Shown here piece by piece: positions 569 to 45,029 of a DNA stretch of 64,000 nt. The stretch spans positions 330-64,329 of the forward strand of contig JAGWHJ010000002.1 in the NCBI GenBank assembly GCA_028866835.1. The letters are read 5' to 3'. This stretch comes from Candidatus Micrarchaeota archaeon (GTDB taxonomy: Archaea > Micrarchaeota > Micrarchaeia > Micrarchaeales > CABMGC01). The notes beneath the pieces are model-generated. The model saw only the letters and a program-made list of their open reading frames with translations, was not told the origin of the DNA and did not search any database. Each line of letters opens with the position of its first letter. Within the stretch, counting starts at the first letter, position 1. The translations under genes were made by a program, and so were the position numbers.

Positions 569-697
569 ATGACCGAATCATTCATAGCAACAGTATTGGA
601 AGACAACAGGGTTACGATACCAAAGGATACGGCAGACGTAATCAAGGTCAAGAAGGGAAGCAAGGTCAGGATTGTAATTGAGAGGATAAGAGCATGA
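569..697 (+). CDS. AbrB/SpoVT-type (looped-hinge helix) small DNA-binding protein, 42 aa
   Basis: Translated by hand: MTESFIATVLEDNRVTIPKDTADVIKVKKGSKVRIVIERIRA. The RVTIPK...G..V pattern is the SpoVT-AbrB fold signature. Its stop overlaps the tnpA start (ATGA at 694-697). Confidence 0.6.
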   Translation: MTESFIATVLEDNRVTIPKDTADVIKVKKGSKVRIVIERIRA

Positions 698-1197
698 GAA
701 ATAGATACCCACACCACACAGAGCCGACAGAGAAGCTAAATACCATGCGTAAGGAATCGCATACGACTTACAACATAAACTACCATTGCGTATGGATACC
801 AAAATACAGAAGAAGGATATTGCAGAATCCATACATCAAGGAGATACTAACGGACATCATAAAGGGAAGATGCGAAGAGAACGACTGGCAGGTATTGGCG
901 TTTGAGATTCAGCCAGACCACATACACCTATTCGTAAGCGTTCCGCCAAAGGAATCTATCTCATGGGTAGTCAAGATACTAAAGGGAAATACAGCCTTGC
1001 AACTGCGAAGGGTATTCCCAGCCTTAAACGCAGTCCATACAAAGCATCTATGGGCAAAAGGATTCTTCGCATCAACCGCAGGATACATCAGCGAAGACAG
1101 CGTAAAGAGATACATAGATGAGCAGGAGCATCACAGATTAAGGGATGAATGGCAAAAGTCGCATCCTTTAGGAAAGCAGTTTACGTTGAGTGGTTGA
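694..1197 (+). CDS. tnpA: IS200/IS605-family Y1 (HUH) transposase TnpA
   Basis: YNINYHCVWIPKYRRRIL, HUH motif in PDHIHLFVSVPP, catalytic Tyr region FASTAGYIS. Typical length; alternative start at Met 745. Confidence 0.9.
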   Translation: MRNRYPHHTEPTEKLNTMRKESHTTYNINYHCVWIPKYRRRILQNPYIKEILTDIIKGRCEENDWQVLAFEIQPDHIHLFVSVPPKESISWVVKILKGNTALQLRRVFPALNAVHTKHLWAKGFFASTAGYISEDSVKRYIDEQEHHRLRDEWQKSHPLGKQFTLSG

Positions 1198-10079: not shown

Positions 10080-10385
10080 TCAGCCAAAGAGACTTGCAAG
10101 CCCTCCGGCCGCTTCCTCTTCGCTTACCGCCTTCTCCTCCTTAGCTTCCTTCTTCTCTGCCTTTGCAGGCTGTGCCCCTGAGGCTGCCGCAGGCGCCGCT
10201 ACCTGCATCGTCTGCGCGTTCTTTATGACGTCCTTTATGTTCACTCCCTTGAGTGAGTTCGCGACAGACTTCGCCATTGCCTGGTCCGGGCTAAGGCCCG
10301 CTGCCTTTACCACGTCCTCAAGACTCTTTTCGTTTATCTCCTTGCCTGCTGCATCCAGAAGAAGTGCAGCATAGATGTATTCCAT
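10080..10385 (-). CDS. rpl12: 50S ribosomal stalk protein P1 (L12)
   Basis: MEYIYAALLL... with A/E/K-rich hinge and C-terminal GLASLFG. Confidence 0.95.
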   Translation of the reverse strand: MEYIYAALLLDAAGKEINEKSLEDVVKAAGLSPDQAMAKSVANSLKGVNIKDVIKNAQTMQVAAPAAASGAQPAKAEKKEAKEEKAVSEEEAAGGLASLFG

Positions 10386-10405
10386 TCAAATTCACCTAAG
10401 TATGA

Positions 10406-11284
10406 TCATGTTGCCGGTTGTGCCGCCGGTTCAGGAGCCTTCGGCTCCTCCTTCACCATGCCTTTCAGCTCCATCGCGGCCCTCATCGCCTTGGCGAGCA
10501 GTTTCTCGGATATCTCCGGCTCGTATATCTCAGCGTCAAGGCCCAGGCCTAGCGCCGACATGTACGCCTTCCTTACCAGGCCGCTGACGTTGAAAGGCGT
10601 GACAAAGCCTATCGACAGTGCAAGCGCGTCTGCCTGCGAGAACGATGCCGCTATGTCCGTCCTGAGGCTCGCCTCTGTTATTGCCAGAACGCGCTCCGTG
10701 AAAAGTATCCTATCGTGCATGACTGCATTGAGCCTTGTCCCAGTCTCGAAAGGCATTATGTCAAGCATCTTCAGGGCCTTTGATACAGCGGTTGTTATCT
10801 TTGCGCCTTTCGCTACAAGAACCTTCGACTTCGATATGACTACCTTGCCCTTCTGTATCTGGACGTCTATGCCCGCGGTCTTCAGATCGGTAACCGCCTG
10901 CCCAGGGGCTATCGTTGTCTCCCCGGATTCTATGTGTATGTCCTCTGGAGAGAGCTGGTTCGGCTTTGCGCCGAGCTTCGTCCTGTTCGCCGCTATGATC
11001 TTGTTCAGCTCAGTAGGGTCCATGTTGGTTAGTATGAGTGCGAAGTCGCTCGGGATGTACTGCTCGAGCTGCTTCAGCCTCTCGTCCCCCTCAAGCGCGC
11101 GCATTACCAGGCTCTTCCTTGCTATGACGAACTTTGCCTTCGGCCTTAGCTCGTTCCTCACCTTCTGCACAAGCCTGTCAGGAACCTTCTCCATAGGCAT
11201 GACCGCTACCGTCTTGTAGCTCTTCATCTCGGTCCTGAGCTTGTTTACGAATTCTACCTTCTCTGCCTTTATCATAAATATCAC
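10406..11284 (-). CDS. rpl10: 50S ribosomal protein P0 (uL10)
   Basis: Position between L1 and L12. N-terminal KVEFVNKL...YKTVAVMPMEKVPDRLVQKVRNEL pattern. Confidence 0.9.
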   Translation of the reverse strand: MIFMIKAEKVEFVNKLRTEMKSYKTVAVMPMEKVPDRLVQKVRNELRPKAKFVIARKSLVMRALEGDERLKQLEQYIPSDFALILTNMDPTELNKIIAANRTKLGAKPNQLSPEDIHIESGETTIAPGQAVTDLKTAGIDVQIQKGKVVISKSKVLVAKGAKITTAVSKALKMLDIMPFETGTRLNAVMHDRILFTERVLAITEASLRTDIAASFSQADALALSIGFVTPFNVSGLVRKAYMSALGLGLDAEIYEPEISEKLLAKAMRAAMELKGMVKEEPKAPEPAAQPAT

Positions 11285-11919
11285 ATCAACCTCATCGGCG
11301 CGCTCATTGTCAGCTTGACGTACACCGAGCGTATGCGGTTCGCGCCTATCTTCTTCGATACTGTATTGACTACCTCGTTTATGTTCTCGTAGAGCTTCTG
11401 CGGCTCCATGTCCTCTGTGCCCACTATGCAGTGTATCGTTGGCAGGTTCTTGCCCTTGTTTCTAATAGTAACTCTCTTGTTAAGTTCGTTTGCTATCGCA
11501 GCCATGTTCACGTTGCCTAGGAGCGGCTTAGGCATCTTGTTCCTAGGTCCAAGGAACTGGCCGAGGCTCTTGGCTATCACGGGCATGAGGTTCGGCTGCG
11601 CTATGAGCTCGTAGTTCACCAGGGAACTGAGCCTTGCATTGTCGCTCTTTATCGAATCGAGCTCGTTTCCGTTTATTACCTCTATGTTGTTCTTCTTCGC
11701 CTCCTCTATCATGTTCCTCTCCGTGGCGAAGATGGCGATCTTCTTCACCTTGCTGCCCTTGCCGTTTGGAAGATTGACGTCGACATTGAGCTTGCTGTCC
11801 TGCTTCGTGAAGTCGATGTCCTTGAAGTTTATGGCTAGCTCTACCGTTTGCTTGAATTTCCTCTTTCCTTTATTGTCAGCAATGAACTTGCTGAACTGCT
11901 CCAAATTCTGCTCTGCCAT
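11281..11919 (-). CDS. rpl1: 50S ribosomal protein L1 (uL1)
   Basis: FKQTVELAINFKDIDF, GKGSKVKKIAIFA. First gene of the L1-L10-L12 block. Confidence 0.95.
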   Translation of the reverse strand: MAEQNLEQFSKFIADNKGKRKFKQTVELAINFKDIDFTKQDSKLNVDVNLPNGKGSKVKKIAIFATERNMIEEAKKNNIEVINGNELDSIKSDNARLSSLVNYELIAQPNLMPVIAKSLGQFLGPRNKMPKPLLGNVNMAAIANELNKRVTIRNKGKNLPTIHCIVGTEDMEPQKLYENINEVVNTVSKKIGANRIRSVYVKLTMSAPMRLM

Positions 11920-12062
11920 TATGATCCCTCCTGCAATATTGCAGTGCTTACGGGAAAATAAGCCGTAGATATGCTATGTCAGTACCAATATAAAAAGCTT
12001 TCCAGATTGGCGCTTTGCAGAAATTCATTTAAATCCACAAGCCAAAATTGTACTGAGCGGCA

Positions 12063-13421
12063 ATGGCATCTGCAAGGAATTATGCAACGTACATAGCTGC
12101 AATAATAGCGATCCTACTTGTTGTTGGCGTATTCTTAGGGGTGAATCATTGGAGAAACGGCGGTTCAACAAGCACCACGATAAGTCAAACCACCATCGCA
12201 TCAACTCATGTTACAACGCCGATGCCTACTTCCATACCTACGACAACCGCCCAGCCAGTAAATTATTCCTGCCCCAATGCAACACGGTATGACCTTACCG
12301 TGCCTTCAAGCTGGGTCAGCCTTTATTCTGAGCTGAACCAGAGCCTCGACAACTTCAGCCAGACTTTGGGCAATGTATCCTCAAAGCCTAATCATACAAC
12401 AATCTACGGCGCAGAGCTTCTCGCCGCTGATGCTAATAGCGGAACCAGCCTCTTGAATCCACAGGCGATGGCGTCTGTAAACAGGCAGCTTAATGCACTT
12501 CAGGCCATGGGCGTAAACGGCGTTACAGTTGACATATCCTTCCCTCTCTTCTTACCAAATTTCCCCAATTCGAGCCGGTACATAGCCTTCTACAAGCAGG
12601 TGGCCCAGGCGATCCATTCAAGGAACATGACTATGGTTGTTGAATACCATGTTATATTCACGGGCACCTCATTCTCATCGCTGACTTACAACTACTCAAA
12701 CCTTACATTCCAGCAGCTGCTGCGTGAGAGGCAGCAGATGGCTCAAATCCTCATAAGCAACATCTCCCCTGACATAGTCGACCTCGGAAGCGAGCCTGAG
12801 ACAACGTACACGCTTCTGCAAGGCAGCGGCAGGACGTACCCGGAGCTTCTCACCCCCGAGGGATGGTACAACTATACCATTGGATCCGTAAGCGGCGTCA
12901 ACACCGGCAGTACCAGAATAGCGGCCGGGTTGGGAAGCTGGGATTCTCCAACTGACATAAAATACATAGCAAACGAATCAAAGTTGAGCTACATCTCGTT
13001 GCACATCTACCCGCTTCTTTCTGTCAACCAGCAGAACGTTATTGAGGATGCAGCCATAGCGCAGGAGCACGGCAAGCCCCTTCTCATAGATGAGGCATGG
13101 GAATGGAAGGAATCGCAGACCAAGCCATACGCGAATGTTGACGTGAACGAATCTATGCGCGGCCCATGGTCGTTCTGGATGCCGATAGACAAGAAGTTCC
13201 TCTCGGATCTTATCAAATATGCAGATAAGTACAATGTGGCATACATCTCACCGTTCCATATCCAGTCTTTCTTCGCTTACGTGAACTACTCCTCAGTCGC
13301 AAGCCTCTCCTCCTCGCAGGAAAACGCGCTTCTTAACCAGCAGGCGAGTCAGGGCATCCAGAATGGCGCCCTTTCGCAGACTGGCTGCCACTACAAGAAT
13401 CTCATAAGCAAAAACCAGTGA
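12063..13421 (+). CDS. membrane-anchored extracellular protein, possible clan GH-A (TIM-barrel) glycoside hydrolase
   Basis: N-terminal TM helix, Thr-rich linker, many sequons. LGSEPE (NEP-like acid/base), ISLHIYP and LLIDEAWEW (nucleophile-like) are spaced as in GH5-type enzymes. Not verified. Confidence 0.45.
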   Translation: MASARNYATYIAAIIAILLVVGVFLGVNHWRNGGSTSTTISQTTIASTHVTTPMPTSIPTTTAQPVNYSCPNATRYDLTVPSSWVSLYSELNQSLDNFSQTLGNVSSKPNHTTIYGAELLAADANSGTSLLNPQAMASVNRQLNALQAMGVNGVTVDISFPLFLPNFPNSSRYIAFYKQVAQAIHSRNMTMVVEYHVIFTGTSFSSLTYNYSNLTFQQLLRERQQMAQILISNISPDIVDLGSEPETTYTLLQGSGRTYPELLTPEGWYNYTIGSVSGVNTGSTRIAAGLGSWDSPTDIKYIANESKLSYISLHIYPLLSVNQQNVIEDAAIAQEHGKPLLIDEAWEWKESQTKPYANVDVNESMRGPWSFWMPIDKKFLSDLIKYADKYNVAYISPFHIQSFFAYVNYSSVASLSSSQENALLNQQASQGIQNGALSQTGCHYKNLISKNQ

Positions 13422-26437: not shown

Positions 26438-27130
26438 ATGAGCCACATGCCAAAATCTTCAAGGGGAAAAAGCATACTCTACGTAAGGGCAGCATCGCTC
26501 AACGACCTTTGCAGGTACTGCTCAAGGTTCGACTTCACTTCTGACAACCTCTTTGTTACCGACGGCAGTTCCGGCGCAAGGGTAATGGCTTTTGGCGAGA
26601 GCATAGGGAAGACAACAATAGCGTATTACGTTGACATGGATGCGAGGAGCAGGCTCATCAAGTACACGCTCCCCACATCAGCACAGGGCTCCGAGCGTTA
26701 CTCGTTCGTGAGCAACGCAGAGGAGCAGCCCGGCAACTACCTTAATGTCATAGGCATCGACATGCATAGGTTCGGCAAGGCGAAGAGCCTCAAGAGCGGT
26801 GAGATAAGCATAGTGATGATGAGCGATGCGCCCAGCATAATAAACGCGGTCATAAAGAAGTCGATGAGGAACGAGATGCTGCTGCATCTATATTCCTTCA
26901 AGTACAAGGACAGGACGGTCCTGTGCGGATTCGATCTCGTGGACGAGCTTGTTGACGACACAAGGATATTCTACTACGCCTTTTCCAAGCCCATAGAGCA
27001 GCCATGCTTCGCAAGGTATGACTATATAAATGACAAAGTAGACTTTACAAACACCGTAGGGGAGCACTCCTACATGTACACCAAGATAATAAACCTCGCA
27101 GAGCAGTTTCCTTTTTTCAGGCCCGAATAG
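26438..27130 (+). CDS. hypothetical cytoplasmic 230-aa protein
   Basis: ORF track. Start abuts the preceding stop (TAGATG). Its last 10 nt overlap the tRNA-Asn 5' end. Confidence 0.5.
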   Translation: MSHMPKSSRGKSILYVRAASLNDLCRYCSRFDFTSDNLFVTDGSSGARVMAFGESIGKTTIAYYVDMDARSRLIKYTLPTSAQGSERYSFVSNAEEQPGNYLNVIGIDMHRFGKAKSLKSGEISIVMMSDAPSIINAVIKKSMRNEMLLHLYSFKYKDRTVLCGFDLVDELVDDTRIFYYAFSKPIEQPCFARYDYINDKVDFTNTVGEHSYMYTKIINLAEQFPFFRPE

Positions 27131-27192
27131 CTCAGTGGTAGAGCGTCTGGCTGTTAACCAGAAAGTCGCAGGTTCGATCCCTGCTTCGGGCG
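27121..27192 (+). tRNA. tRNA-Asn(GTT): tRNA-Asn (anticodon GTT), no encoded CCA
   Basis: Folded by hand: acceptor GCCCGAA/TTCGGGC, D arm GCTC-AGTGGTA-GAGC, anticodon arm TCTGG-CTGTTAA-CCAGA, T arm GCAGG-TTCGATC-CCTGC, discriminator G. Confidence 0.9.
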
Positions 27193-27212
27193 ATGCACTT
27201 CAAGGTAGACCC
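27182..27212 (+). repeat. repeat family copy R0: tRNA-Asn 3' end plus trailer (3' module only)
   Basis: TGCTTCGGGCGATGCaCTTCAAGGTAGACCC. Same string as the 3' module of R2, R3, R4 and R6. Confidence 0.8.
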
Positions 27213-27219
27213 CCGCTCC

Positions 27220-27251: not shown

Positions 27252-27704
27252 GTGGTGTCGAAGCGGAGAGGCCTAAATCCAGCGCTTAAAGAACTCAGTA
27301 TACTGGTAGGTGGCTGGGACATGGAGTTATCCAATGCTGCATTCTTGCCAAATCCCAAAGCAAAAGTTCATGGGCCTGCCTCATTCAAATGGATAGAGGA
27401 TGGTGCCTATCTAGTCGCATATCAAGGGGCCAAAGGCGCACCGCAGTCTAGATGGCTGATAGGGCGTGACGAAGCGACAGGCCAATACAAGGTCGTTTAT
27501 TTTGACTCCAGGGGGGTATCTAGGATCTATGACATGAGCTTTAAGAAAGGGGTTTGGAAGATGTGGAGAAATGCACCGGATCTACCGCAAAGCTTCAGGG
27601 GCGTTTTCAAGGGCAGAAACACGATAATCGCAGAATGGAAGACCGCAAAAGATGGGAGGCATTTAAAACACGATTTTGATATGAAATATACAAGGAAAAA
27701 GTGA
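27252..27704 (+). CDS. DUF1579-like / lipocalin-like small protein
   Basis: LKELSILVGGW start and an all-beta pattern typical of the family. GTG start. Confidence 0.45.
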   Translation: MVSKRRGLNPALKELSILVGGWDMELSNAAFLPNPKAKVHGPASFKWIEDGAYLVAYQGAKGAPQSRWLIGRDEATGQYKVVYFDSRGVSRIYDMSFKKGVWKMWRNAPDLPQSFRGVFKGRNTIIAEWKTAKDGRHLKHDFDMKYTRKK

Positions 27705-27714
27705 ATTTTAAGAG

Positions 27715-27770
27715 CTTCCTTGTCGGGATGCGCCTAGCGAACATCTTGTGCATCAGGCGTAGAGTTCTTG
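27715..27770 (+). repeat. repeat family copy R1 (diverged)
   Basis: CTTCCTTGTCGGGATGCGCCTAGCGAACATCTTGTGCATCAGGCG...TTCTTGAC. Confidence 0.65.
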
Positions 27771-28407: not shown

Positions 28408-28455
28408 GTTTATCGACTTTTATTTAAGTTATTTAAACTTAGTTATTTATTAGGT

Positions 28456-28512
28456 TTCTTGTCGGAGATGTGCCTGACGCACATCTTGTGCTTCGGGCGA
28501 TGCCCTTCAGGT
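28456..28512 (+). repeat. repeat family copy R2 (best-preserved core)
   Basis: TTCTTGTCGGAGATGTGCCTGACGCACATCTTGTGCTTCGGGCGATGCCCTTCAGGT. Confidence 0.85.
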
Positions 28513-28541
28513 TCTGCTCCCGCTTAGTGAAAGTTGCTGCG

Positions 28542-31863: not shown

Positions 31864-31941
31864 AAAATCAAGTCATTTAAAAGTTCTTTGCCGGAGCTGT
31901 GCCTGACGCGCATCTTGTGCTCCGGGCGATGCGCTTCAAGT
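31864..31941 (+). repeat. repeat family copy R3 (with A-rich 5' module)
   Basis: AAAATCAAGTCATTTAAAAGTTCTTTGCCGGAGCTGTGCCTGACGCGCATCTTGTGCTCCGGGCGATGCGCTTCAAGT. Confidence 0.85.
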
Positions 31942-31960
31942 ACGACTCCACAGCCAAATG

Positions 31961-34194: not shown

Positions 34195-34274
34195 AAAAAT
34201 CAAGTTATTCGGAACTTCCTTGTCTGATATGCGCCTGACGCACATCTTGCGCTTCGGGCGATGCGCTTCAAGGT
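34195..34274 (+). repeat. repeat family copy R4 (with A-rich 5' module)
   Basis: AAAAATCAAGTTATTCGGAACTTCCTTGTCTGATATGCGCCTGACGCACATCTTGCGCTTCGGGCGATGCGCTTCAAGGT. Its last 7 nt overlap the stop of the 34268 gene. Confidence 0.85.
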
Positions 34275-34681
34275 CTACTCTGCTCGAGATATTTTTTAAG
34301 CCCATCTAGCATCATCTTCCATCCCTGCTCATTATGCTGCAGAGCCTCCTGTGTAGGGTTGTTTGTCTGGGATAGGGACACCAAGGTACGTGCTCCACTG
34401 CTGGCCAATTCCACCGTGACTATGTGATAACTCTCAGGTGCATCGGGTAACCCAGTTAGCGGGCTGAAGTGGCTGTATCTAATGAGGCGCTCAGGAACAA
34501 GCTTCAGTATTTTTCCTTTGTCTTCGTATTTTTTACCATTCCATTCCCCTCTCCATACAATAGAACTTCCCTCCCTCCATTCTGATACTGCGTCGGCGCC
34601 AAGCATGTACTTCTTGATTGCCTTTGGGTTAGTCAGAGCATCCCAAACTCTCTCTATAGGTGCATTAACCTCAATTTGCAC
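34268..34681 (-). CDS. SRPBCC-superfamily (AHSA1-like) protein
   Basis: IEVNAPIERVWDALTNPKAIKKY... Confidence 0.8.
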   Translation of the reverse strand: MQIEVNAPIERVWDALTNPKAIKKYMLGADAVSEWREGSSIVWRGEWNGKKYEDKGKILKLVPERLIRYSHFSPLTGLPDAPESYHIVTVELASSGARTLVSLSQTNNPTQEALQHNEQGWKMMLDGLKKYLEQSRP

Positions 34682-34750
34682 TTTTACAATAAGATCCTTG
34701 TCTGAGTTTGCCGTGTAATCACAAATATATGTTTAAGCCCTTACTTATAT

Positions 34751-34776
34751 CTCTTTGCCGGAGATGTGCCTGACGC
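34751..34776 (+). repeat. repeat family copy R5 (5' half only, truncated after CCTGACGC)
   Basis: CTCTTTGCCGGAGATGTGCCTGACGC, then unrelated sequence. Confidence 0.7.
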
Positions 34777-39388: not shown

Positions 39389-39431
39389 CGACCCGCACGC
39401 CCAGGCCACTACGCCCCTTACAATCTAAATA

Positions 39432-39488
39432 ATATACATGGATTTAAACAATATACACTCTTGTAAATTCATTTAAATCAATGTATAT
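39432..39488. repeat. 17-bp inverted repeat ATATACATGGATTTAAA ... TTTAAATCAATGTATAT (1 mismatch, 23-nt spacer)
   Basis: Read directly, 44 nt downstream of the copA stop. Confidence 0.5.
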
Positions 39489-39520
39489 CTGGTATACACG
39501 TTCATATGCGAAAGCAGGGC

Positions 39521-39598
39521 AAAAATCGACGGTATAAAAATCCTCCTTGCGGGACGTGCCTTACGAACATATTGTGCATCGGGCGATGTGCTTCAGGC
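39521..39598 (+). repeat. repeat family copy R6
   Basis: AAAAATCGACGGTATAAAAATCCTCCTTGCGGGACGTGCCTTACGAACATATTGTGCATCGGGCGATGTGCTTCAGGC, followed by AGACCC as after the tRNA. Confidence 0.8.
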
Positions 39599-39682
39599 AG
39601 ACCCATACGGGACAAACTGATAATGCGGCGGACATAATTACAGGGATTACTACAAGGCTGTGCTGATCCCGCCCATTCACTA

Positions 39683-43682: not shown

Positions 43683-43760
43683 AACTCAAACTATTTGAAT
43701 CCTTCTTCCTTGAGATATGCCCGGCGCACATCTTGTGCTTGTGGAGACGGCCTTAAAGTG
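43683..43760 (+). repeat. repeat family copy R7 (3' module diverged)
   Basis: AACTCAAACTATTTGAATCCTTCTTCCTTGAGATATGCCCGGCGCACATCTTGTGCTTGTGGAGACGGCCTTAAAGTG. Confidence 0.7.
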
Positions 43761-43766
43761 CGGTCC

Positions 43767-45029
43767 CTATACGGCAAGAAAAATCCAGCATACAATGACG
43801 TTCAGTGACGTAACCACGATACCAACCTTTGCAAAGTCAACGAATGATAGCACATGGTCGTATTTTCTCTCTGCAATCTGTATTATGATGATGTTGCTTG
43901 CTGCACCAAATACGAACAGATTGCCGGCTATGGTGCTGCCTGCGGCAAGCGCCATTGCCTCTGCTGTAGAGACGTGGGCGTATGCCAGCAACTTCAGATA
44001 AATAAGCACCATTGGGACGTTCGAAACTAACTGGCTTCCAAGCACATTAACCAAGAGTATCGTAGGCACCGACCCTAGGTTTAAATTTGCGCTTCCTATC
44101 AAATTCTGCAAGAATCCAGACTGCCATACGCTTCCTACAAGTACAAACAGCGCCATGAAAAATATTATCGTACGCCAATCGATGTTTGCGACCAATGACA
44201 ATCTTTTGTTGCTGAAGATCAGGATGGGCAGGGCAGCCATTACTGCTATATATGAAAAACTTAAGCTCACAGGAACGTCTGTTACTTCTACCGTGGCATA
44301 TATAATCACCGATATGGCCATAATGGCGAGAGATAGCTTGCATAACCCAGCGAGTTTCTTGTCCTTTAGCGGAGGGCGCGTATGGATCAGCGGCTCACGG
44401 TGAAACTCTTTCCTATAAAACGCTTTTAGGACCAGGTATGCGATCGCCAGATTTATGGCTGTTGGAACCAGAAGGTAACTGAAGAACGCGACAAACGGAT
44501 CCTTCACCAGACCGCTAGAAGCGACTATAAGATTCTGCGGATTTCCTATAGGGCTTGCAACGCTTCCTATGGTAATTGCAAAGGCAAGCGACAGCAGCAA
44601 GAGATTAGGATTTATTCTCCATCTCATAGCAAAAATCATAACTACGGGGGTTACGATCACCGCAATCGTATCATTAAGCAAAAACATCGATGCAAAACCC
44701 ATAACCAGAAGCACGAGGAGTACGAGTTCGTCGACTGAACTTGCAACCTTGAATATCTTATAAGATAGGTACTGCGCATAACCGCTTTCGGTTAGCGCTT
44801 CACCCACTATGAAAATACCCAAAAGAAATGTTATCACTGTAAGATCAATGTAGGAAGCTGCCTCGTATGGAGATACCTGCCCAGTAATCATAACTGCTAG
44901 AGCTCCTCCAAGCACGATCTGCCATATCTGTAACCTTATATTGCCTATCCGCCTAAATGTTATTAGTACAAACGCTATCACTAATACTATTACCGATAAG
45001 GGAGGAAGACCCATGCCCATATAAGGCAA
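43767..45029 (-). CDS. ArsB/NhaD-superfamily (SLC13-like) anion permease
   Basis: 420 aa, about 11-12 helices. N-terminal VIAFVLITFRRIGNIRLQIWQIVLGGAL pattern of this family. Confidence 0.65.
   Translation of the reverse strand: MPYMGMGLPPLSVIVLVIAFVLITFRRIGNIRLQIWQIVLGGALAVMITGQVSPYEAASYIDLTVITFLLGIFIVGEALTESGYAQYLSYKIFKVASSVDELVLLVLLVMGFASMFLLNDTIAVIVTPVVMIFAMRWRINPNLLLLSLAFAITIGSVASPIGNPQNLIVASSGLVKDPFVAFFSYLLVPTAINLAIAYLVLKAFYRKEFHREPLIHTRPPLKDKKLAGLCKLSLAIMAISVIIYATVEVTDVPVSLSFSYIAVMAALPILIFSNKRLSLVANIDWRTIIFFMALFVLVGSVWQSGFLQNLIGSANLNLGSVPTILLVNVLGSQLVSNVPMVLIYLKLLAYAHVSTAEAMALAAGSTIAGNLFVFGAASNIIIIQIAERKYDHVLSFVDFAKVGIVVTSLNVIVCWIFLAV

Follow-up and report, generated by a model that had tools for sequence, protein, structure and literature searches.

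Introduction

In bacteria, units that are flanked by att sites and lack recombination genes are found stacked at the end of tRNA genes, where such CIMEs build up by tandem accretion beside an ICE or IME. The pdif modules of Acinetobacter plasmids are small gene cassettes of another kind, with Xer-type sites (11-6-11) inverted around each module, while at the attP(+) site of the CTX phage one strand folds by itself into a mimic of the duplex dif site of XerCD. For elements that insert into archaeal tRNA genes, the dyad symmetries of the tRNA are the classic explanation of why a recombinase chooses its target, and the exchange of modules by homologous recombination has been described between elements integrated in tandem (PMC8371274). 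Cassette arrays of the integron type also have archaeal examples (PMC9668308).

Here we describe an array of gene units on a contig of a Micrarchaeota MAG (1.09 Mb, 52% GC), within a stretch of 64,000 nucleotides that we refer to as the window. The units are separated by direct repeats of ~100–120 nt, and a 57-nt segment (28456–28512 in the copy under study) is the most sequence-conserved part of the repeat. In our judgement, this segment is probably the centre of an attP-type attachment site, used by elements whose insertion target is the 3′ end of tRNA-Asn(GTT). The array is best read as the att sites of tRNA-targeting tyrosine-integrase elements, with tandem accretion of CIME-like units that have no integrase. 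No description of such arrays in Micrarchaeota was found in literature searches.

Results

The array downstream of tRNA-Asn and how it compares

Every copy of the repeat in this genome lies on one contig, on the + strand and downstream of tRNA-Asn. The features of the array are as follows.

27121–27192, + strand: tRNA-Asn(GTT) gene, anchor of the array on the attB side (ARAGORN; Rfam tRNA, 77 bits)
27182–27217, + strand: putative attL, the core TGCTTCGGGCG (27182–27192) and then a trailer of the 3′-arm type (repeat family D3; nhmmer, HMM positions 55–90)
27701–27766, + strand: R1, 5′ arm and variant core TGCATCAGGCG, without a 3′ arm (profile match)
28439–28525, + strand: R2, the copy under study (fold analysis and profile match)
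28440–28452, + strand: AT-rich box of R2
28466–28473, + strand: X1 of R2
28479–28486, + strand: X′ of R2
28487–28491, + strand: X2 of R2
28489–28499, + strand: core TGCTTCGGGCG of R2
28500–28525, + strand: 3′ arm of R2
31864–31960, + strand: R3, full copy with GCGCA/TGTGC, G·T at the third pair (profile match)
34196–34286, + strand: R4, full copy with GCACA/TGCGC, A·C mismatch at the third pair (profile match)
34747–34776, + strand: R5, cut off in the loop of hairpin A (profile match)
39394–39523, + strand: AT-rich, palindrome-rich extension of the 5′ arm of R6 (alignment A3, ~90 invariant columns)
39524–39606, + strand: R6, full copy closing the unit from PadR to the copper ATPase (profile match)
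43683–43777, + strand: R7, last copy, with the degenerate core TGCTTGTGGAG (profile match)

The units of the window carry accessory genes: RibD_C, a 1086-aa surface protein, a PQQ-like propeller, AHSA1/SRPBCC, CitMHS, a run from PadR through a copper P-type ATPase, and an amino-acid permease with MscS and HPP; one further unit has a weak, sub-threshold match to DUF1579. Pfam scans found no recombinase domain in these units, and several of their ORFs have no Pfam match at all. The units thus have att sites on their flanks and no recombination gene, as CIMEs do.

Upstream of the tRNA, two ORFs are syntenic in relatives at 22–61% aa identity. One of them encodes 230 aa (26438–27130, + strand) and its stop overlaps the 5′ end of tRNA-Asn; it keeps this place across the order at 22–46% identity. 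It was considered as a hidden recombinase and set aside, as its confident AlphaFold model (pLDDT 88) contains nothing recombinase-like; its sequence matches nothing in Pfam, NCBIfam or PDB, and its fold has no counterpart in PDB.

As in CIMEs, att-flanked units without recombination genes are gathered at one tRNA end, with an integrase presumed to be supplied in trans. Unlike CIMEs, they reside in an archaeal host, are much smaller and form arrays that are conserved across a whole order. The likeness to pdif lies in small gene modules that are bounded by recombinase sites while the recombinase is encoded elsewhere; the sites here, unlike pdif, are direct repeats with a tRNA-derived core. Compared with the archaeal elements that target tRNA genes (PMC8371274), the array has the same kind of core, equal to the 3′ end of the tRNA, which is restored after insertion; an integrase gene adjoins attL (here in relatives and not in this genome), integration occurs in tandem at one tRNA, and dyad symmetries of the tRNA region would likewise serve as recombinase sites. 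It differs from them in that the integrases appear to form a Micrarchaeota lineage with a C-terminal zinc ribbon, that most units are single genes of 0.15–5 kb without an integrase, and that the arm adjoining the core looks like a shortened acceptor/T-arm.

With integrons, the array shares units of one or a few genes between co-oriented, imperfectly palindromic repeats, and with CALINs it shares that many arrays have no integrase. This likeness is one of outline only. The array is headed by a tRNA gene and not by attI next to intI, and the integrases found in relatives, of ~407 aa, lie 3′ of the tRNA with no attI beside them; unlike attC, it is sequence (1.5–1.6 bits in the arms) and not structure that is conserved, and genes point both ways (28 vs 12). 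Core sites of integron attC (RYYYAAC ... GTTRRRY) in attC order, sought on either strand, were found in 0 of 73 copies.

Units are shared between genomes

A profile of the window copies (nhmmer HMM) was used to search relatives, from which 20-kb stretches were fetched around matches; this gave 114 matches in 41 loci. The repeat is present in 26 of 82 and 21 of 94 sampled genomes of two families, which belong to one order; a further 224 genomes, representing the remaining families of the phylum, yielded no copy. Scanning viral contigs with the repeat pattern returned 0 matches, and the same scan of metagenome contigs returned one locus (L076), again a tRNA-Asn array and with an AbiE unit. In L076 the first unit after the tRNA is an AbiEi/AbiEii toxin–antitoxin pair, and two repeats only ~190 nt apart (features at 10202–10555 and 10672–12139) make up an empty unit.

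All copies are co-oriented with tRNA-Asn(GTT) in 41 of 41 loci, with none of mixed orientation. Together these loci contain 73 inter-repeat units of 145–5400 nt; of the 40 units with a single gene, 28 have it against the direction of the tRNA and 12 with it. A second array in G029 (contig C34, L036 4878–5767) begins 8 nt beyond the end of a protein-coding frame, its stop codon included, with only 13 nt of the tRNA-Asn 3′ end and no tRNA nearby; it is either a secondary site or a translocated array.

Many units are common to relatives, also across genera, at 88–98% nt identity and in differing positions of the array; one is the first after the tRNA in G087 and the third in G115. The matches between shared units stop inside the repeats. 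The RibD_C unit of the window matches that of G029 at 97% aa and 93.6% nt identity. G029 is a member of the other family, and its neighbouring core gene has only 50% aa identity. Other shared units of the window have aa identities of 84–88% (AHSA1), 81% (propeller) and about 86% (copper ATPase). Judged by these sequence comparisons, units move between genomes.

Anatomy and conservation of the repeat

From 5′ to 3′, the repeat is made up of an AT-rich box, CCTTGTCGG, X1 (AGATGTGC), CTGAC, X′ (GCACATCT), X2 (TGTGC), the core and a 3′ arm of the type ATGCGCTTCAGG..ACCCC... The core, TGCTTCGGGCG, overlaps X2, and its 11 nt are identical to the last 11 nt of tRNA-Asn. One motif, ATGYGC, recurs: it is direct in X1, inverted in X′, direct and partial in X2, and direct again in the 3′ arm (X3). 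Conservation amounts to 1.56 bits in X1, 1.51 in X′ and 1.62 in X2, compared with 1.27 where the core is identical to the tRNA, and the loops show a conservation similar to that of the stems. The conserved motifs and loops therefore fit sequence-specific binding by a protein, and not a purely structural element. An earlier, preliminary description of this DNA had argued that the element is no neutral scar, and on this point we agree, since the hairpin-forming motifs, at 1.5–1.6 bits per column, are its best-conserved part.

Sites that vary are mostly flips between GTGC and GCGC, which fall on the same position of each ATGYGC (profile columns 37, 47 and 55, corresponding to 28471, 28481 and 28489 in R2). 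These flips occur even between copies whose flanking units are 96–98% identical.

The AT-rich box is found at a fixed distance, ~19 nt before GCCTGAC, in nearly all copies, a spacing close to that between the TATA-like box and the 5′ end of the tRNA genes of this genome. R6-type repeats are preceded by a longer AT-rich stretch of ~150 nt, whose ~90 invariant columns hold across 8 loci in 7 genomes and which contains nested palindromes (AAATTCATTTAAATGAAT and TGTATA..TATACA). The same long arm precedes the repeat that ends the integrase-bearing element of G323 (L078 16540–16600). In the window, this stretch (39394–39523) is probably the long P arm of the attachment site.

Copies break sharply on both sides of the core

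Incomplete copies delimit the core. The 3′-only copies, 30 in number, have one and the same start, HMM position 55, which is the T of TGCTTCGGGCG. The majority are the tRNA itself, others are 3′ fragments of tRNA-Asn that vary in length, and still others follow unrelated DNA. Conversely, 14 of the 16 5′-only copies end at positions 63–68, where the last G of the core is position 65, with unrelated sequence beyond. The RibD_C unit begins directly after GGCG in two different contexts: in the window it follows the GGCG of R1, and the junction of R1, GGCG followed by TAG.GTTCTTGAC, recurs in G029. One unit, common to G023 and G114, closes with a genuine 3′ half of tRNA-Asn, and the similarity stops exactly after GGGCG. 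Such sharp breaks on both sides of an 11-nt block of identity are the mark of site-specific exchange within the block.

A less simple picture emerges from pairs of copies that share one flanking unit. Pairs sharing the left unit are alike above background only up to about profile column 28, and pairs sharing the right unit only from about columns 60–66, so that the central ~37 nt of the repeat are statistically unlinked to either flanking unit. No homogenization of this central module was found within genomes. The break point is not constant among copies whose left flanks are near-identical (columns 18/19, 26/27, ~30 and >64), which a single fixed crossover does not predict and which counts against the attP-type reading. 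Recurrent mutation, correction of the quasi-palindrome or variable points of exchange are possible reasons for the unlinked centre.

An integrase family lies beside tRNA-Asn in relatives

Cross-matching the positions of integrases with those of the repeat over 401 genomes gave two matches, G307 and G323. In G307 the gene of a 407-aa PF00589 integrase starts 55 nt after tRNA-Asn, and a full repeat follows 5.4 kb further on. In G323 the gene of a 408-aa integrase lies 37 nt past the 3′-arm-type trailer of the tRNA, and the full repeat is 13 kb on. Both elements are bounded by a site on the side of the tRNA and a distal copy of the repeat, as listed here.

L077, 5637–5709: tRNA
L077, 4359–5582, − strand: integrase
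L077, 89–181: distal repeat
L078, 3441–3514: tRNA
L078, 3581–4807, + strand: integrase
L078, 16584–16670: distal repeat

Remnants of the G323-type integrase sit directly after tRNA-Asn or after a repeat: G058 has a near-full-length pseudogene at the head of its array, G298, G373 and G023 keep N-terminal pieces of 65–84 codons, and G087 keeps 17 codons. The family combines PF00589 with a C-terminal zinc ribbon in ~400 aa and occurs in 52 of 181 genomes of the order. Of the 30 loci fetched, 23 have a tRNA gene ~100 nt before the integrase gene and on its strand; the tRNAs in question are those for Asn, Gly, Glu, Pro, Thr, Val, Ala, His and Ser (loci L077–L108), and subgroups of the integrase seem to differ in their tRNA target.

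This genome has no homologue of the integrases of G307 and G323, and its contig has no recombinase apart from an unrelated gene of the IS200 type; both facts weigh against the attP-type reading. The four PF00589 proteins of the genome were rejected as candidates for the recombinase of the array, being Xer-like and encoded on other contigs. Across 41 relatives the presence of PF00589 does not track that of arrays, and no serine recombinase was found in five array genomes.

Two observations concern Xer-like proteins and their surroundings. Four Xer-like tyrosine recombinase paralogues of 289–330 aa are encoded on contigs C34, C15, C21 and C24 of G000 (L001–L004), a ~1.1-Mb genome, and all score far below the XerA cut-off. 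The motif TTTACGACGACAAA occurs on contig C34 of G000 (L001, 1358 and 2303), in the 3′ flanks of tRNA-Glu(ttc) and tRNA-Cys, and at array ends in L058 and L074. It follows several tRNA genes, flanks a Xer-like recombinase gene beside tRNA-Glu on both sides, and behind tRNA-Cys forms an 11-6-11 palindrome of dif-like geometry. In some tRNA-Asn arrays it comes after the last repeat, which is 5′-only, and probably represents the ancestral trailer.

Could the units move without any integrase? If the repeats were merely relics of old integrations, they would provide ~40–60 nt of portable homology, over which units move by homologous recombination. Exchange of modules in this manner is reported between tandem archaeal elements (PMC8371274). 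It is in keeping with the variable break points, with a central module unlinked to both flanks, with array-bearing genomes that have no PF00589 match, among them G011, G024, G026 and G038, and with the lack of a tRNA-Asn-type integrase in this genome. Nevertheless, we consider this explanation unlikely. At many junctions the shared sequence amounts to the 11-nt core alone, too short a stretch for homologous recombination to be efficient, and these junctions are sharp on both sides, with all left ends at position 55 and right ends after GGGCG next to unrelated flanks. In addition, the strict co-orientation of copies, the strong constraint on the motifs including their loops, and the integrase genes and remnants at the heads of arrays all speak for an attachment site.

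The hairpins are probably a by-product of repeated motifs

The preliminary description drew attention to two hairpins in R2, and their geometry is as it had stated. Hairpin A pairs AGATGTGC (28466–28473) with GCACATCT (28479–28486) over a perfect 8 bp, around the loop CTGAC, while hairpin B pairs GCACA (28479–28483) with TGTGC (28487–28491) around the loop TCT. The 3′ strand of A supplies the 5′ strand of B, hence the two folds are mutually exclusive. Hairpin B lies directly 5′ of TTCGGGCG (28492–28499), which is the place of a T-arm, and the same 8 nt terminate the real tRNA-Asn (27185–27192).

The likeness to a tRNA goes further. The T-stem opens with the same three pairs, GCA/TGC, that occur in hairpin B, and GCCTGAC of the repeat resembles GCCCGAA, the 5′ strand of the tRNA acceptor. 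In R2, GCCTGA (28472–77), upstream of hairpin B, can pair with TCGGGC (28493–98) in the manner of an acceptor stem, and some units have a genuine tRNA-Asn 3′ fragment in place of the hairpin arm. The resemblance of the arm to tRNA is real at the level of design.

As a hairpin, however, R2 is no rarity. The 64-kb window contains 5 perfect 8-bp hairpins with loops of 3–8 nt, against a mean of 5.4 in shuffles, so that one such hairpin is unremarkable. R2 folds better than its own shuffles (z −2.9 as RNA, −2.5 as DNA) and R4 also beats its shuffles, by less; R1, R6 and R7 fold no better than theirs (z −1.0 to +0.9). What lies above chance is the conservation of the motifs across copies, and not the hairpin.

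The third pair of hairpin B had been described as A-T in R2 and R7, G·T in R3 and G-C in R4, and read as a compensatory series. The first two assignments stand, but R4 (34225–34260) reads ...GACGCACATCTTGCGCTTCGG, with GCACA/TGCGC at hairpin B, and its third pair is therefore an A·C mismatch; the GCGC was probably taken from the ATGCGC motif upstream. In place of a compensatory series, the window shows two independent single changes.

We then assembled the 77 distinct copies among the 114 matches that cover the hairpin region (alignment A5). Their third pair of hairpin B is A-U in 37 copies, G-U in 31, G-C in 1 and unpaired in 8. Hairpin B and its acceptor-like extension have 87.0% of their cells paired, against 86.9 ± 0.4% in shuffles, and the covariation of this helix is below the shuffle mean, a score reached by 448 of 500 shuffles. 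Each of the acceptor-like pairs is broken in 3–20 of the 77 copies. For hairpin A, 90.6% of cells are paired compared with 89.9% in shuffles, and 20 of 500 shuffles reach its covariation score, a value that the covariation tool warns is often attained by related sequences without any structure; this nominal signal comes from one pair only (U-A 35, U-G 21, C-G 12, unpaired 9), at which the slight surplus of C-G over unpaired copies counts, weakly, against the attP-type reading. Over the same 77 copies, the inverted repeat GCRCATC/GATGCGC covaries worse than shuffles, and the terminal CTTG/CAAG stem does not covary clearly above them. A set of 43 copies gives the same answer, with no helix clearly beating column shuffles, and RNAalifold predicts no consensus structure for the copy alignment. 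The larger set thus holds substitutions in hairpin B that are not compensatory, the very finding that the preliminary description had named as telling against its proposal of selection on the structure; the compensatory series does not hold, and that proposal finds no support.

Hairpins A and B are best read as a by-product of three to four copies of ATGYGC, some direct and some inverted, that adjoin the core on its 5′ side. On the same best reading, the variable third pair corresponds to the degenerate Y in X′ and X2, which change independently of each other.

A fold of this kind could still be used by a recombinase. The arm would then be a DNA mimic of the acceptor/T-arm minihelix of tRNA-Asn that works folded, as a single strand or cruciform, in a recombination site of the attC or CTX type, where GCCTGA:TCGGGC atop hairpin B rebuilds a duplex acceptor end. 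The extended hairpin is indeed the RNA minimum-energy fold of R2 (−23.5 kcal/mol) and also of R3, R4 and R1; its pairing register is specific, with 87% of cells paired in register and no more than 51% once the partner is shifted along; on the + strand, the third pair remains a wobble despite the A/G change; and a genuine tRNA 3′ half substitutes for the arm in some units. Like CTX attP(+), the hairpin could rebuild the duplex target by mimicking the end of the tRNA acceptor, but unlike in CTX attP(+), the pairs are not maintained by compensation. The loops are as conserved as the stems, the core sites of attC are lacking, and a duplex core is present anyway in ordinary double-stranded DNA. We thus find folded action quite improbable. 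If true, it would mean that single-gene units without an integrase are captured at a tRNA end by a folded mimic, an archaeal, tRNA-anchored counterpart of the integron. The preliminary description was right to propose a recombination site, but not one that is attC-like or IS200/REP-like.

Still less probable is a small tRNA-like or cis-regulatory RNA, with its own TATA-like box and a minihelix processed by tRNA enzymes. The AT-rich box with its tRNA-gene-like spacing is consistent with it, as is the minihelix as the RNA minimum-energy structure of four window copies. Against this, the helix lacks covariation and an RNAalifold structure, and Rfam at E≤1 matches the real tRNA alone. Because 28 of the 40 single-gene units have their gene start facing the AT-rich box of the repeat on their right, this box is probably the promoter of the unit's own opposite-strand gene, which is the simpler explanation.

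A hairpin of the IS200/IS605 or REP type, as an end or target for an HUH (Y1) transposase on single-stranded DNA, would account for a subterminal hairpin, for insertion always 3′ of one sequence and for the single orientation of all copies, and the genome has three Y1 transposase genes, one on this contig, but it is extremely improbable given that the flanks of the Y1 genes are unlike the repeat (local scores 10–13 vs a shuffle maximum of 14), that Y1 shows no association with arrays (present in 10 of 15 genomes that have one and in about 13 of 26 that do not), that G012 with ~10 copies has no Y1 gene, and that the repeats are confined to one locus instead of dispersed. The Y1 gene of the window lies at 694–1197 (+ strand), with flanks unrelated to the repeat.

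Discussion

The attP-type attachment site that we favour suggests the following course of events. A tyrosine integrase of ~407 aa, whose gene lies next to attL in complete elements, would act on the repeat and recombine 5′ arm-TGCTTCGGGCG-3′ arm with the tRNA gene at its terminal 11 nt, which equal the core, and the crossover would fall inside this 11-nt core. A complete element would carry the long P arm, the ATGYGC-rich arm, the core and the 3′ arm immediately upstream of its integrase gene. Repeated insertion would then stack units in the order tRNA-core-3′arm [unit] 5′arm-core-3′arm [unit] ... 5′arm-core-old trailer. Deletions would remove the integrase, often sparing its first codons, and leave units that are bounded by intact sites. 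Since most units have lost the integrase and keep the sites alone, they could move only with an integrase acting in trans. X1, X′, X2 and X3 are most likely sub-sites for protein binding on double-stranded DNA, and we would expect the ATGYGC motifs to be bound as duplex.

Taken together, our results remove a false positive, as the compensatory series rested on a misread copy and vanishes with 77 copies. They tie the integrase-less arrays behind the tRNA genes of Micrarchaeota to a family of ~400-aa tyrosine integrases whose genes come right behind tRNA genes of at least nine amino-acid specificities. They also define a site that is testable in vitro, with an 11-nt core, an ATGYGC-rich arm and a long AT-rich P arm. 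This offers a handle on how these tiny symbionts exchange genes for metal resistance, transport and defence.
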